From a virus (taxonomy: Duplodnaviria > Heunggongvirae > Uroviricota > Caudoviricetes): a stretch of DNA of 22,993 nt. Numbering within the stretch: the first letter of the stretch is position 1; each line of letters opens with the position of its first letter. The DNA is taken from the IMG/VR virus record IMGVR_UViG_3300000292_000175. One strand, written 5' to 3'. Under the pieces are notes generated by a model, which saw only the letters and a program-made list of their open reading frames with translations, was not told where the DNA came from and made no database searches. Position numbers and translations under genes: made by a program. This document shows positions 2,245 to 17,955 of the stretch, one piece after another.

Positions 2245-2764
2245 CGATCCACCCGCCCACGTTTTCACCGGCCTTAGCTGCAACATTGGAGGCTTTCGCG
2301 ATTTCAGTTTTCACCACATCAAGGTGTGATGGTGAAATGTCCGGATATTTACGCTGTAATGTCAACGGCACACGCACAAGTATCCCCGAAATCTCCTGTG
2401 CCACACGTTGCAGAATGAAGGTAAACAGTTCAGTTTCCAGCACCACTCCGTCTTCACGGGCATTTTTCAGTTCCTGCGCATCTGCCTGCGCTTTTGTGAG
2501 CCGGTAGCGTTCATAGTCAATGGTGCCGGGTTGTAAATCTGACTCCGCTGCCGCACGCAAATCGGCCAGTTCTTTGCGGAGCTTTTCGTTTTCGATATCA
2601 GTTTCCCTCTGCGCATACCACTGAATTGCCATGGCAGTATCAAATACAGATTCAATGCCCTTACTGCCTTTGGAGACGCAAGGGAGCCCCTGAGACTGCC
2701 AGCGTTCAATCGTCCGCGGGTCCACGTTAAAAATTTCGGCAAGCCTCTTTTTATTAACCTTCAT
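2216..2764 (-). CDS. nu1: Terminase small subunit (Nu1)
   Basis: Similar to lambda Nu1 from [12 protein letters not shown] (HTH) through [27 protein letters not shown]. Start taken at the internal Met at 2764 rather than the ORF-track Met at 2788. Confidence 0.88.
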
Positions 2765-2939
2765 AGAACAACCCATTATCAAATACAAGGCCCGACATGA
2801 AAACGCCAGAAAAAGGCATTTTCGGACACTTTCATGTCGGACCTTTACGGATGCAATATTAAAAAAAACAAAAAGTTATATTCGAGAAGTACCGACACGA
2901 TTTTCCCTGAAAAATTTTCATAAATAGTGAAAAACCGCG

Positions 2940-2951
2940 AGGTCGCCGCCC
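2940..2951 (-). other. cos: cosN 12-nt cohesive-end site of a lambda-type cos; cosB lies between here and the nu1 start (about 2765-2939), cosQ side about 2952-2990
   Basis: Minus strand reads caggttacg-GGGCGGCGACCT-cgcggtttttcactatttatgaaaatttt, matching the lambda cos junction (right end ...GTTACG, then left end GGGCGGCGACCTCGCGGGTTTTCGCTATTTATGAAAATTTTCC) as I recall it. Confidence 0.85.
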
Positions 2952-3099
2952 CGTAACCTGTTGGATCGACGGAAAGGACCCGAAAACGAGAATAATTATC
3001 ACTTACAGCAAGAATCGAATCTGATCTATTATGGTGCTTGCTATTATGTGCCGGCACAAGTGCGTCGTTTACCGTCATTTCACACAGAGGCATCATCAA

Positions 3100-6253: not shown

Positions 6254-6679
6254 AAGCTGTGTGACGAAGTAACCACTCTTAACAGCATAACCAATTTTTT
6301 ACGTACGTAAACTACTAAATGATATTTGTGAGAATGCCACCGAGTGTTCAAAACACCACCACAAATGCATAAGAAAACTTCAACAAATAACCAGTTAATA
6401 ATTTCCGATGTTATTTTTAGTTTGTTTAAATTAAGCTAAAGAATTATAGAGCACTTATAAATAAGTGCCATTAATATAAATTAGCTAATAGATTTATTTT
6501 TGTTCAGACAAGAGCCATGAATAGGATTAGATAGAAAAGGTTCAGATAAAAATAGAGATCTACTTCACAAATTAAATGAGAAACTAAAACTTACATCTTG
6601 AAATAATCACATTGATTAGATGAATATTTATCGCGCAGTGACATCATTTTTTAATAATAGTTCAAAAAAAGGGCGTACA

Positions 6680-7762
6680 ATGAAAAAATTAACAGTGGCA
6701 ATTTCTGCTGTAGCTGCATCAGTACTGATGGCGATGTCTGCTCAGGCAGCTGAAATTTATAATAAAGACAGTAACAAGCTGGATCTATACGGGAAAGTTA
6801 ATGCCAAGCACTACTTCTCCTCTAATGATGCAGATGATGGTGATACTACTTATGCCCGTCTTGGCTTCAAAGGTGAAACCCAAATCAACGATCAACTGAC
6901 TGGTTTCGGTCAGTGGGAATATGAATTCAAAGGCAACCGTGCTGAATCTCAAGGTTCTTCCAAAGACAAAACCCGTCTTGCATTTGCAGGCCTGAAATTT
7001 GGTGATTACGGCTCAATCGATTACGGCCGTAACTACGGTGTAGCATACGACATCGGTGCGTGGACTGACGTTCTGCCAGAATTCGGTGGTGATACCTGGA
7101 CCCAAACAGATGTGTTCATGACTGGTCGCACTACTGGTGTTGCAACTTATCGTAACAACGACTTCTTTGGTCTGGTCGATGGCCTGAACTTTGCTGCTCA
7201 GTATCAGGGTAAAAATGACCGCACTGACGTAACTGAAGCCAATGGTGATGGTTTCGGTTTCTCCACTACTTATGAGTATGAAGGATTCGGCGTGGGTGCA
7301 ACCTATGCTAAATCAGATCGCACTGACGGTCAGGTCGCCTATGGTAAGAGCAAATTCAATGCCTCCGGCAAAAATGCGGAAGTATGGGCTGCAGGCCTGA
7401 AATATGATGCGAACAATATCTATCTGGCTACCACATATTCTGAAACTCAGAATATGACCGTTTTTGGTAATAACCATATTGCAAACAAAGCACAAAACTT
7501 TGAAGCAGTAGCACAATATCAGTTTGACTTCGGTCTGCGTCCATCTGTTGCTTACCTTCAGTCAAAAGGTAAAGACCTTGGTGTTCATGGTGACCGAGAC
7601 TTAGTCAAGTATGTCGATGTCGGTGCTACTTACTACTTTAATAAAAACATGTCCACTTTTGTTGATTACAAAATCAACTTAATTGACGATAGTAAGTTTA
7701 CCAAAACAGCTGGTATTGATACCGACGACATCGTCGCTGTAGGTCTGGTTTATCAGTTCTAA
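6680..7762 (+). CDS. nmpC: Outer-membrane general porin (OmpC/OmpF family), prophage-borne NmpC/Lc type
   Basis: 360 aa with signal peptide [23 protein letters not shown], porin hallmarks ([25 protein letters not shown]-terminal VAVGLVYQF). Opposite to Q and S, matching the DLP12 quuD-nmpC-essD layout. Confidence 0.9.
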
Positions 7763-13329: not shown

Positions 13330-13440
13330 ATGCCCTCCATAGTAAACACGAATAAAAAAATACAATATGTACTTTGCGAATACAAGTAAAAATACACATT
13401 GTGCATGGATGGTTCCAGTACAGAGCGTAATAATAAGGAC
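13330..13440. promoter_or_regulatory. OR operator region with divergent PR (candidate -35 at 13380-13385, -10 at 13357-13362, minus strand) and PRM
   Basis: Intergenic region between divergent cro and cI. Minus strand has TTGTAT, 17 bp, TATTTT. Several TACA/TGTA dyads (tacaatatgta, cacattgtg) are candidate operator half-sites. Confidence 0.55.
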
Positions 13441-14100
13441 ATGAAAATGAAATGGTATGAACTGGCTAGATCCAGAATGAAAGAGCTCGGCATAACTCAA
13501 GAGAAGTTAGCCGAAGAGCTAGGTATGACGCAGGGTGGGATTGGACACTGGTTGCGCGGATCTCGTCATCCATCTCTTAGTGATATTGGTGTGGTGTTTA
13601 AATACCTTGGTATTGATAACATATCATTCAACCACGACGGGACATTTTCACCTGTTGGCGAATACTCATCGGCCCCAGTTAAAAAACAATATGAGTACCC
13701 TGTTTTTTCTCATGTTCAGGCTGGGATGTTCTCTCCAGAACTCAGAACCTTTACCAAAGGCGATGCGGAGAGATTGGTAAGCACAACCAAAAAAGCCAGT
13801 GACTCTGCATTCTGGCTTGAGGTTGAAGGTAACTCAATGACCGCACCAACAGGTTCCAAACCCAGCTTTCCTGACGGGATGTTAATTCTGGTTGACCCTG
13901 AGCAAGCTGTTGAGCCCGGCGATTTCTGCATAGCCAGACTTGGTGGTGATGAATTTACCTTCAAGAAACTGATCAGGGATAGCGGTCAGGTGTTTCTACA
14001 GCCACTAAACCCACAATACCCAATGATCCCATGCAATGAGAGTTGTTCCGTTGTGGGGAAAGTTATCGCCAGCCAATGGCCTGAAGAGACGTTTGGGTGA
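13441..14100 (+). CDS. cI: CI repressor (N-terminal HTH, C-terminal S24 LexA-like autopeptidase domain)
   Basis: [26 protein letters not shown]; C-terminal GNSM (Ser) and FTFKKL (Lys) dyad. Start chosen at ATG 13441 (AAGGA RBS); ATG 13447 is also possible. Not the lambda immunity type. Confidence 0.85.
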
Positions 14101-14139
14101 TGAAACCACTTTTATCTACAATTTACAGGGCGGTAAACA

Positions 14140-14697
14140 TTGGCAAAAATAGATGATTATCAGCCAAGCCAAGTAGAAGTTGATAAAGTACTTTATTGTA
14201 AAAAAATAGTTAACTTTTCTGGCGTTAAATGGAAACAGAAACCAAGTCGCTCTGATATGTGGCTACAAGCCCATATCATCCCCTTGGATGAGGATTGTAT
14301 ACCTATACAAGGGCTAAAGTTTGAACTGAAATGGAAACCAGATCAGGATTCAGAACCTGATGACCCGATTTCTTACCCTAAAATAAATATTATTGCTTTC
14401 TATCATAACAAGAGGGTTTTCGCGGTAGATACCTATCACTTTGACAAACACACGAATAGTTACAAGGTCGATCATCCGAAGTACCAAGATATCATTTACG
14501 GTGCTCACTACCATGTATACTATGAAGAAGCTGGATACTATAGTGATAGAATAGCGTTTCCAATCGAAGATGACATAAACCCAGATGACCTGGTAGGGTA
14601 TTGGAATTACTTCTGTAAACATCTGAACATAACTTACTCTGGGAGAATACCTTTACCGCTTGAAGATGAGTCGGGGCAAATGGGGTTTGGAATATGA
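14140..14697 (+). CDS. Hypothetical protein, gene 1 of a two-gene cassette in the rexA position
   Basis: 185-aa ORF, apparent TTG start at 14140 (no in-frame ATG nearby), AGGGCGG 7 nt upstream. AT-rich by eye. Acidic and Tyr/His/Trp-rich; no motif recognised. Confidence 0.55.
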   Translation: MAKIDDYQPSQVEVDKVLYCKKIVNFSGVKWKQKPSRSDMWLQAHIIPLDEDCIPIQGLKFELKWKPDQDSEPDDPISYPKINIIAFYHNKRVFAVDTYHFDKHTNSYKVDHPKYQDIIYGAHYHVYYEEAGYYSDRIAFPIEDDINPDDLVGYWNYFCKHLNITYSGRIPLPLEDESGQMGFGI

Positions 14698-15446
14698 TGT
14701 GCTCAACAGTGATCTCACAACTAGGTTTCGAATGCCATCCAATAGGCAAGACCTTGAGAATTATCAGTCCATTCACTTACTGTGATGATGGAGAGCATGT
14801 CGGTGCCTTTATCCGTGAAGTCAATGGTAGGTATTTAGTTAGTGACAGATGCGATGCCTTAATGAATATGGAGGCAAGAGGGATCTCGCTTACCAAAAAA
14901 CGACTTGATGAGATACGACAATTACTGCTTAAAGAAGGCGCAGAACTCAATGCTCGAGGAGAAATCATTGCTTGGGCAACAGAAAAGGATGTCGGTGCGA
15001 TTACATCGAACATAATTAGAGCTGGTATACTCGCATCAACTTTGTCGTTAGACTGGTATCAGCCAGTTCAAGCTGAAAAGTTTGAAAGTATGGTTATTGA
15101 TTATCTATATCACACAGAGCTTAGAGACGCACTTTCTCTTCGTGAAAACGTATATGGCTTGAGTGGACATCAAATTACCGTCCCTGTAACAATAAAAACC
15201 GACATACCTAAATACGTTTTTACATCAAGCGTGAAACACGGAGGAAGCTGGAATAGTGCTTACTCATTGCTTGGGAAACTAATTGATCTTAAAGCTTCAA
15301 GTGAGGAGTATAACAACAGATTTGTTGTTATAGACAGCGAAGCAATTGGTGATCAAATGCAACAACTCTCCTTACTCTTCCATGAATCAAGCCAAGTTCT
15401 ACCATTCTCCAAAAGAGAGACTTGGGTTAAGAGACTTGCAGCATAA
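14694..15446 (+). CDS. Hypothetical protein, gene 2 of a two-gene cassette in the rexB position
   Basis: 250-aa ORF; ATG overlaps the gene-1 stop (ATGA); GGGG RBS. AT-rich by eye; no Walker or nuclease motif recognised. Confidence 0.6.
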   Translation: MMCSTVISQLGFECHPIGKTLRIISPFTYCDDGEHVGAFIREVNGRYLVSDRCDALMNMEARGISLTKKRLDEIRQLLLKEGAELNARGEIIAWATEKDVGAITSNIIRAGILASTLSLDWYQPVQAEKFESMVIDYLYHTELRDALSLRENVYGLSGHQITVPVTIKTDIPKYVFTSSVKHGGSWNSAYSLLGKLIDLKASSEEYNNRFVVIDSEAIGDQMQQLSLLFHESSQVLPFSKRETWVKRLAA

Positions 15447-15450
15447 TACA

Positions 15451-15478
15451 ACCCGGCCTCAGCGCCGGGTTTTCTTTG
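15451..15478 (+). terminator. Intrinsic terminator after the cI cassette (tIMM-like)
   Basis: acccggc-ctcagc-gccgggt followed by tttctttg immediately after the gene-2 stop. Confidence 0.7.
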
Positions 15479-15664
15479 CCTCACGTTCGCCCACCTAAAA
15501 ACACATAACCAATTATATTTATTGAAAAATAAATAGATGCAACCCACTAAACCACGCAATTCTGATCTCTCCTTACATCGCCGAGGCAATACATCCACGC
15601 TAAAAAACAACACTATTAAATACAAAGCGTTATAAAAAACCACGCCAACTTACAACAAATTGTA

Positions 15665-17718: not shown

Positions 17719-17790
17719 GCGCGGCGTTACCGCATACCAATTACGCTTCACTCGAGGCGTTTTTCGTTATGTATAAATAAGGAGCACACC

Positions 17791-17955
17791 ATGCAATATG
17801 CCATTGCAGGGTGGCCTGTTGCTGGCTGCCCTTCCGAATCTTTACTTGAACGAATCACCCGTAAATTACGTGACGGATGGAAACGCCTTATCGACATACT
17901 TAATCAGCCAGGAGTCCCAAAAAATGGATCAAACAATTATGGCTATCCAGACTAA
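17791..17955 (+). CDS. cIII: CIII (FtsH inhibitor)
   Basis: 54 aa [54 protein letters not shown] by hand translation, near-identical to lambda CIII. GGAG RBS. Confidence 0.9.
   Translation: MQYAIAGWPVAGCPSESLLERITRKLRDGWKRLIDILNQPGVPKNGSNNYGYPD

Follow-up and report, generated by a model that had tools for sequence, protein, structure and literature searches.

A conserved non-ATG start codon on the first gene of a predicted defence pair in the rexAB slot of a lambdoid prophage

The stretch of DNA analysed here (22,993 nucleotides, nt; IMG/VR virus record IMGVR_UViG_3300000292_000175, Caudoviricetes; referred to at its full length as the window) derives from a lambdoid prophage and is laid out like the lambda immunity region, except that two genes, here called gene 1 and gene 2, stand where lambda has rexA and rexB. 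Gene 1 starts at a TTG codon and its end overlaps the beginning of gene 2. Read along the + strand, with (-) marking genes on the opposite strand, the order around this cassette is cro (-), cI, gene 1, gene 2, hairpin terminator, N, sieB (-), ral, ea10, cIII, kil, gam, bet and exo; the features of the cassette are collected in Table 1. By comparing the locus with its homologues we found that both the position of the gene 1 start and the non-ATG nature of its codon are retained over deep divergence. Together with the linkage of gene 2 to gene 1 and the listing of both proteins as defence candidates, this suggests that a weak start probably limits the dose of a two-protein system acting against superinfecting phages.

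Table 1. Features of the gene 1-gene 2 cassette and its flanks in the window
Feature	Position	Strand	Remarks
cI-type prophage repressor, first gene of the lysogenic operon	13405..14100	+	Pfam Peptidase_S24 1.3e-28, HTH_3 2.1e-10; named cI or LexA family in database records
Short open reading frame of 18 codons	14100..14156	+	its ATG shares the A of the cI stop TGA 14098-14100 (TGATG)
Shine-Dalgarno-like AGGGCGG	14127..14133	+	6 nt before the TTG
Start codon TTG of gene 1	14140..14142	+	
Gene 1	14140..14697	+	185 amino acids
ATGA overlap	14694..14697	+	gene 2 ATG 14694-14696 over gene 1 stop TGA 14695-14697
Gene 2	14694..15446	+	250 amino acids
N-terminal domain DUF1828 of gene 2	about residues 1-117		conserved Cys/His cluster
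C-terminal domain DUF1829 of gene 2	about residues 129-250		restriction-endonuclease-like fold (PD-(D/E)xK clan)
Intrinsic-terminator-like hairpin and T-rich tail	15450..15481 (hairpin 15450-15471)	+	directly 3' of the gene 2 stop

The strong terminator-like stem (AACCCGGC/GCCGGGTT) has 8 pairs, 6 of them GC, and closes the cI-gene 1-gene 2 operon before the PL/N region. No terminator was found in the interval between cI and gene 1 of the window, and a consensus scan for a promoter of the cassette itself was uninformative, yielding 5 matches against 7.0 expected by chance. The annotated ATG of cI lacks a Shine-Dalgarno (SD) sequence (dG +0.7), as expected for a leaderless start. We infer that the cassette is co-transcribed with cI in lysogens, from the maintenance promoter.

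The start codon of gene 1 and its coupling to gene 2

The first-pass annotation of this DNA had taken TTG 14140 to be the sole start that yields the 185-residue protein, and had noted AGGGCGG in front of it. Inspection of the sequence, the list of open reading frames (ORFs), the translations and a codon scan bear out the former, and the latter lies where Table 1 places it. An in-frame TAA (14134-14136) stands two codons 5' of the TTG. No start is possible between them, and after the TTG the frame has no further ATG, GTG or TTG until the ATG at codon 40 (14257). The same TTG is called by the NCBI annotation pipeline PGAP (WP_001062368.1) and in two independent phage annotations. In Escherichia phage PhiR57_1, which is identical to the window over the cassette, the 76 annotated genes comprise 64 ATG, 8 GTG and 4 TTG starts, the other three TTG calls being tiny hypothetical ORFs.

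To follow the codon through evolution, homologous loci were read as DNA, i.e. genome loci, distant partners from Aeromonas and Klebsiella pneumoniae that were found via gene 2, and 79 IMG/VR viral contigs. Pooling gave 89 full-length loci that fall into 20 clusters at 90% amino-acid identity and reach down to 39% identity to the window protein. Gene 1 starts at the same MAK position throughout, with GTG in 18 of the 20 clusters, TTG in the remaining two (the E. coli allele and that of Aeromonas caviae) and ATG in none. For instance, the homologues from Klebsiella, Salmonella, Yersinia, Buttiauxella and Xenorhabdus (59-71% identity) all begin with MAKxDDY at this position, and genome loci from Izhakiella, Yersinia, Xenorhabdus and Providencia align from residue 1. 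Among the 11 lineages examined in detail, an upstream stop lies within three codons in 7, and 9 are devoid of an alternative in-frame ATG, GTG or TTG upstream. The possibility named beforehand, that homologues begin at a different conserved ATG, is thereby contradicted in 20 of 20 clusters, and the weak non-ATG start that had been proposed is real.

Other candidates for the start were considered and rejected. The internal ATG at codon 40 is ruled out: the first 39 residues are conserved like the rest of the protein (12 of them are invariant) and are confidently folded in the structure model (residues 11-30 at a predicted local distance difference test score, pLDDT, of about 91-92). An in-frame ATG upstream does not exist in the window; a single lineage (L014) has one, 6 codons 5' and without an SD sequence. 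A structure in the RNA that might hide the start was not apparent either, since the fold of 14095-14200 is nothing special (z = -0.84), and Rfam contains no element that matches around the gene 1 start. As regards the ATG at 14100, the earlier observation that it opens a different, short frame stands, but the stop of that frame does not overlap the TTG as claimed: it is the TGA at 14154-14156, 12 nt past the TTG, such that the short ORF overlaps the start region of gene 1 by 17 nt in a different frame. This ORF is present in the E. coli allele only; elsewhere the sequence in front of gene 1 is unrelated, and the idea that the ORF serves generally as a conserved leader peptide or as an entry site for frameshifting was rejected for that reason. 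In this one allele, the short ORF could relay ribosomes from cI to the TTG.

By these indications TTG 14140 is the true start of a real protein-coding gene. Gene 1 is more than a chance ORF because the same start recurs in independent records, because homologues with saturated synonymous sites keep the MAK start and because the protein yields a confident fold model.

In the case of the GTG clusters the start is preceded by minimal (A/C)GGA(T/A) SD sites, whose predicted duplexes with the anti-SD sequence at the 3' end of the 16S RNA range from -2.8 to -5.7 kcal/mol (mostly about -3.2; all duplex energies below are in the same unit). The two TTG clusters rank first and second among the 20 in SD strength (-7.9 for AGGGCGG of the window and -6.6), a pairing with a chance of 1 in 190. 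Four-fold degenerate sites are 21-44% identical between lineages whose proteins are 39-71% identical to that of the window. These sites are saturated, and an unconstrained first base of the start codon would therefore have changed many times. It looks as if selection holds the initiation rate of gene 1 low but not too low.

The first alternative to be weighed is that the non-ATG start was simply inherited, i.e. that GTG arose once in the ancestor of the clade, that the level of expression matters little and that the pairing of TTG with a strong SD site is a coincidence. All 20 clusters indeed descend from one ancestor, so that they do not count as independent trials; the E. coli allele is near-clonal, and the combination of TTG with a strong SD site is known from two lineages only. 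Moreover, among the relatives at 22-28% identity two (L024 and L028) start with ATG, and GTG occurs at that distance as well. Because of these two ATG starts the weak codon is, as far as the sampled relatives tell, a trait of the enterobacterial/Aeromonas clade and not of the whole superfamily. Against mere inheritance stands the saturation just described: a neutral first base would have been hit repeatedly, whereas the G-to-A transition that would create ATG was never seen and the G-to-T transversion was seen twice. In addition, the weak GGA-type SD site has been kept while the surrounding leader and the repressor gene changed completely. On balance we consider unselected inheritance unlikely, though worth keeping in mind. 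Besides the shared ancestry, the two TTG lineages and the two ATG starts, two properties of the sequence itself speak against a weak start as the reading of this locus: the SD site of the window allele is stronger than the median of -6.35 for the 76 annotated genes of PhiR57_1, and the second and third codons, GCN AAA, are of a kind that generally favours initiation.

The linkage between the two genes is as persistent as the start codon. The ATGA junction, behind which the window has a second in-frame ATG for gene 2 (14697-14699), occurs in most lineages and every lineage has some overlap, be it ATGA, TAATG (1 nt) or 10 nt, the same three forms being found in the relatives at 22-28% identity. 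The 10-nt form characterizes, for instance, a subclade of 180-residue gene 1 proteins from IMG/VR (L078, L084, L094 and L102; ~42% identical to the window protein), in which gene 1 ends with ...WEM-TAA and gene 2 begins 10 nt upstream of that stop (MGNVTCST...), without ATGA. The SD site of gene 2 itself measures -2.2 to -5.4 across lineages, which is weaker than the phage median. The output of gene 2 is thus probably capped by the translation of gene 1 and would not exceed it; we infer that termination-reinitiation, with gene 2 made at or below the level of gene 1, is the likelier arrangement. The ATG inside the gene 1 stop and the weak SD site contradict the earlier description of gene 2 as the 'stronger' downstream gene. 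The accompanying suggestion of stoichiometry control fares better, in that the weak start and the linkage of the genes support it, but it has to do without a stronger gene 2. Since no lineage lacks the translational link between the genes, these sequences can reasonably be read as controlling the dose and ratio of a two-protein system.

The two proteins and their defence candidacy

The gene 1 protein is acidic and rich in aromatic residues, as first noted, and contains the motif YGAHYHVYYEEAGYY. Its isoelectric point is 5.27, with 29 Asp and Glu against 20 Lys and Arg; Tyr (8.6%) is at about three times the usual level and Asp (10.8%) and His (4.3%) are at twice that level, with Trp at 2.2% and Phe, Trp and Tyr together at 15.1%. 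An AlphaFold2 model is mainly beta and confident (pLDDT 82, predicted template modelling score 0.81), including residues 11-30 upstream of the internal ATG, and the protein appears soluble, without a hydrophobic segment (maximum 19-residue Kyte-Doolittle mean 0.45). Invariant in the family are K22, W31, R92, D97, N106, G121, H123, H125, F158 and P173, and H104 is nearly so. Residues 175-185 (14662-14694) are predicted to be disordered (pLDDT <50), yet E175, S178, G179, Q180 and G182 (ESGQxG) and a hydrophobic end are conserved across the family. The same stretch also holds the ribosome site of gene 2, and its conservation may serve the protein, the mRNA or both.

The family of gene 1 is rare: a profile search of 1.84 billion representative sequences returned 20 proteins at E <= 1e-3 (about 20 clusters at 50% identity). 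The protein matches phrog_2017, to which no function is assigned, and its C-terminal part matches Pfam DUF6978 (PF22398) with 22.0 bits (E 2.2e-4), below the gathering threshold of 29.6. As 6 of 18 gene 1 relatives also match DUF6978 (best E 1.1e-4), the comparison indicates remote homology rather than membership. No match was found between gene 1 and solved structures; SAKe6, a designed six-fold repeat propeller and the only strong hit of the gene 1 profile in the PDB, was discarded as an artefact of summing over repeats, with no single significant stretch. NCBIfam has no family for gene 1 or for gene 2.

Gene 2 is better placed. Residues 26-110 match Pfam DUF1828 (PF08861) with 33.5 bits (E 5.3e-8), above the gathering threshold of 22 bits, and HHpred assigns the protein to DUF1829 of the PDDEXK clan with a probability of 98.8 (Table S5 of PMC13092281). 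The C-terminal domain has a predicted alpha/beta core fold like that of restriction endonucleases, in which H159, K173, D198, R209 and D214 are invariant and the lysine of 'S-V-K181' varies (K/Q/S/N); nuclease activity is plausible at most. A sequence search of the PDB with the gene 2 profile found nothing. Like gene 1, gene 2 encodes a soluble protein (maximum 19-residue Kyte-Doolittle mean 1.19). Within the DUF1828 domain (window 14700-14800, residues 3-35) we observed an invariant Cys/His/acidic cluster of C3, E13, C14 and C30 (at least 90% conserved) and D31-D32-G33-E34-H35, which may be a metal site. The protein ends with ...KRLAA (15435-15446), and the LAA is kept in 15 of 20 homologues, the others ending with LVA, LCA, LCT or IAS. 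A C-terminal LAA is like the end of the ssrA degradation tag that is recognised by ClpX, and this hints at a protease-controlled turnover of the putative effector.

Both proteins are related to entries in catalogues of defence candidates. Gene 2 matches the PADLOC model PDC-M24B (PDLC04540) over nearly its full length (E 4.7e-10; residues 2-249 against positions 4-254 of 256), and a second PDC-M24B model at 1.5e-7. The match of gene 1 to PDC-M24A (PDLC04536) is weak (E 4.8e-4) and covers residues 104-163 only; among 18 members of its family, the PDC-M24A models PDLC04536, PDLC04533 and PDLC04538 are matched by 4, 3 and 1, respectively (best E 2.4e-4). The gene order of PDC-M24, with A adjacent to and before B on the same strand, is found in the window and in all related loci. 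In addition, DefensePredictor (Science 2026, PMC13092281; Tables S5 and S10) lists both proteins, in one operon, as 'Predicted novel defense gene', with log-odds of 4.90 and 5.42 for the gene 1 product WP_001062368.1 and of 5.64 for WP_000968518.1. By these listings the pair is an already catalogued candidate with a predicted role in defence.

Genomic context and distribution

In nearly every locus that was checked with Pfam, the upstream neighbour of gene 1 is a codirectional CI-type repressor. Most of these have HTH_3 and Peptidase_S24, and some are HTH-only and face YdaS/YdaT-type genes; the exceptions are one ORF without a Pfam match and two metagenomic relatives without an identified repressor, and in one metagenomic relative a small ORF lies between repressor and gene 1. 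The distance between repressor and gene 1 ranges from 29 to 393 nt. Since the repressors belong to many unrelated immunity types and the replication modules differ too, the pair evidently moves around as one unit, with the repressor transcript as its constant site.

From cI through gene 2 (13399-15500) the window is 100% identical to Escherichia phages ev207, ev017, PhiR57_1 and PhiR63_2, and over 14000-15500 it is 100% identical to prophages of E. coli Nissle 1917, ATCC 25922, the type strain DSM 30083 and others; the gene 1 stretch (14101-14700) is found with 100% identity in CFT073 and ABU 83972. Gene 1 is carried by 241 of 5,426 complete E. coli genomes, each time as a single copy and with at least 99% identity. 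In one viral contig with the E. coli allele, IMGVR_UViG_2526164629_000012 (2501-3054), gene 1 is broken after 58 codons, which could be a sequencing error or a natural knockout.

A few observations concern the surroundings of the cassette. At the 3' end of the cI gene of lambdoid prophage NC-SV (E. coli NC101) lies svsR, a 77-nt small RNA that resembles co293 and is said to limit phage infection via lowered lamB expression (PMC12803456). If the cI of the window were of the same type, svsR would end ~40 nt before the gene 1 start; an Rfam search at the 3' end of cI (about 14020-14100) gave no match. The repressor called 'pr' in Nissle 1917 (PMC5987069) could not be linked to the cI of the window. 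Elsewhere in the window, Rfam Lambda_thermo, the cIII thermoregulator, matches at 17778-17836 (+; 88.5 bits, E 1.1e-20), and an ORF for 380 amino acids at 6620-7762 (+) corresponds in size and position to the OmpD-type outer-membrane porin gene that PhiR57_1 carries between Q and the lysis genes. The full phage PhiR57_1 also has the manganese/iron transporter sitABCD, which lies outside the window.

A dose-limited defence pair and its relation to known systems

The above can be combined into one explanation. The lambdoid prophage carries an accessory cassette of two genes (a 'moron') where lambda has rexAB, and gene 1 leads this cassette. Ribosomes would load rarely on gene 1 and, at its stop, reinitiate on gene 2. 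With a suboptimal initiation of gene 1 and the start of gene 2 inside its end, both products would be scarce and their ratio fixed, with no more of gene 2 than of gene 1. They would form a complex and act jointly against superinfecting phages, with gene 2 as the probable effector, in which the restriction-endonuclease-like DUF1829 domain would be controlled by the DUF1828 domain. Gene 1 would be its obligate partner, i.e. a sensor or a restraining subunit, which may use the conserved His/Asp/Asn cluster and the flexible C-terminal tail. Since the repressor transcript is never switched off in a lysogen, the weak start would serve to hold a potentially harmful pair to a dose that is safe. For the whole chain, from a real TTG start via selected, weak and coupled expression to a prophage defence pair, we estimate a probability of about 0.6; it builds on what was observed, namely where gene 1 starts, that its conserved codon is not ATG and has a compensating SD site, that gene 2 overlaps gene 1, that the pair is linked to the repressor and followed by a terminator, and that gene 2 has a nuclease-like fold.

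Several findings weigh against the part of this chain that concerns defence. The canonical D...(D/E)xK is not evident in the conservation of gene 2, which shows no clear ExK, and the domain may accordingly be something other than a nuclease. Literature searches on DUF1828, DUF6978, PDC-M24 and the WP accessions brought up nothing functional in main texts, and no paper that mentions PDC-M24. Both accessions are, moreover, absent from the DefensePredictor tables of screened candidates (S6), plaquing (S7) and validated domains (S8) (PMC13092281).

The strict codirectional linkage to repressors of many immunity types, and an ssrA-like LAA that hints at ClpXP-controlled turnover of gene 2 in 15 of 20 homologues, would also suit a cassette that serves the lysis-lysogeny decision or the induction of the prophage itself. 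In such a scheme the targets of the pair would be, for example, the repressor, host proteases or DNA ends rather than other phages, and the pair would be tied to the repressor through cI transcription; lambda RexA, for that matter, is reported to affect the bistable switch besides its role in exclusion. Nevertheless, most lambdoid phages with the same or a related cI do without the cassette (6 of 173 matching phage records cover at least 80% of the query), which implies that it is dispensable for the switch. Exclusion genes such as rexAB are known to reside in the slot downstream of cI, and both proteins score as defence genes in a model based on context and sequence and match a PADLOC candidate. 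We therefore hold a role in the switch to be improbable.

An addiction module that stabilises the prophage, with gene 1 as an antitoxin in excess and gene 2 as a nuclease-fold toxin, is very improbable (the first-pass annotation had named toxin/antitoxin pairs next to sensor/effector pairs): the overlapping two-gene layout with the upstream gene translated first, the nuclease-like fold and the conserved hydrophobic or LAA-type C-termini, which could be degrons, would fit, but neither protein matches a toxin or antitoxin family in Pfam or NCBIfam, gene 1 (185 residues, mainly beta, no DNA-binding domain in the model) does not look like the small DNA-binding proteins that antitoxins usually are, the scan described above identified no promoter for the pair, and an antitoxin whose gene starts weakly would be risky.

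Returning to the dose-limited defence pair, a more daring version of it can be imagined, to which we would give hardly any credence. Gene 1 would then be a new family with a fold absent from solved structures and a D/H/N...GxHxH site, and its non-AUG start would itself be the sensor of infection: initiation at GUG or UUG being unusually sensitive to initiation factor 3 and to the state of translation, takeover by a phage would shift the ratio of gene 1 to gene 2, gene 2 would be lost via its LAA tail and the nuclease-fold effector would be released.

A weak start codon that limits the dose of an accessory gene pair is a familiar device. Less ordinary are the depth to which the non-ATG codon is conserved, a gene 1 without a structural match and the presence of a predicted defence pair in the rexAB slot of much-used E. 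coli strains. The locus illustrates cleanly how, in nature, GTG or TTG can be maintained as the start codon across deep divergence, with SD strength in compensation. Among the carriers of the cassette are CFT073 (a model uropathogen), Nissle 1917 (a probiotic), ABU 83972 and ATCC 25922 (a reference strain). Should the pair prove to work in defence, phage therapy and engineering with phages would be affected in these strains, and the classic immunity-region slot would gain an alternative to RexAB that is soluble and has a nuclease fold. For cloning it follows that dose and ratio will probably change if gene 1 is given an ATG or gene 2 is expressed by itself, which could mask or fake a phenotype.

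One of the systems to which the pair can be compared is PDC-M24. It consists of a DUF6978-like A and a DUF1828-containing B protein in the same two-gene order, and its B component is matched over the full length, whereas the match of gene 1 is partial and under the family thresholds. PDC-M24 is itself a computational candidate. On sequence similarity, the window pair is best filed as a divergent relative of it. HipAD (DS-6), a validated defence system of E. coli, likewise has DUF1829 in its second protein, but its partner is a HipA-type kinase and not a relative of gene 1, and DS-6B combines DUF1829 with DUF3037 instead of DUF1828 (PMC13092281). The Cfr10I/NgoMIV/PspGI/EcoRII group of restriction endonucleases and the nuclease domain of Can2 share the PD-(D/E)xK fold with gene 2; their signature acidic and lysine residues are, however, not recognisably conserved in gene 2, which has no methyltransferase partner beside it, and those enzymes are without DUF1828.

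In terms of position the pair resembles RexA and RexB of lambda, which are encoded by two codirectional genes in the same slot, right after cI and before OL/PL and N, on the immunity transcript; the window pair likewise ends at a terminator. The ribosome site of rexA is of the minimal GGA type ('aaatGGAttgaattATG', -3.1), like that of gene 1 in the GTG lineages. We also observed that the rexA leader of lambda ('gtaaATGGATtgaattATG') resembles the gene 1 leaders of three GTG lineages ('ataaATGGATatttaaacaGTG'; L004, L005 and L003); unrelated cassettes of this slot may share sequence at the junction or ribosome site, or this may be a chance likeness in AT-rich DNA. Rex function depends on the ratio of RexA to RexB. 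Unlike gene 1, rexA starts with ATG, and unlike gene 2, rexB has a good SD site of its own (-6.9) after a 15-nt gap, without overlap. RexB, furthermore, is a polytopic membrane protein, whereas both window proteins are devoid of hydrophobic segments, and there is no similarity in sequence or fold between the two pairs. As judged from this comparison, the pair is like RexAB in position and operon logic without being a member of that family.

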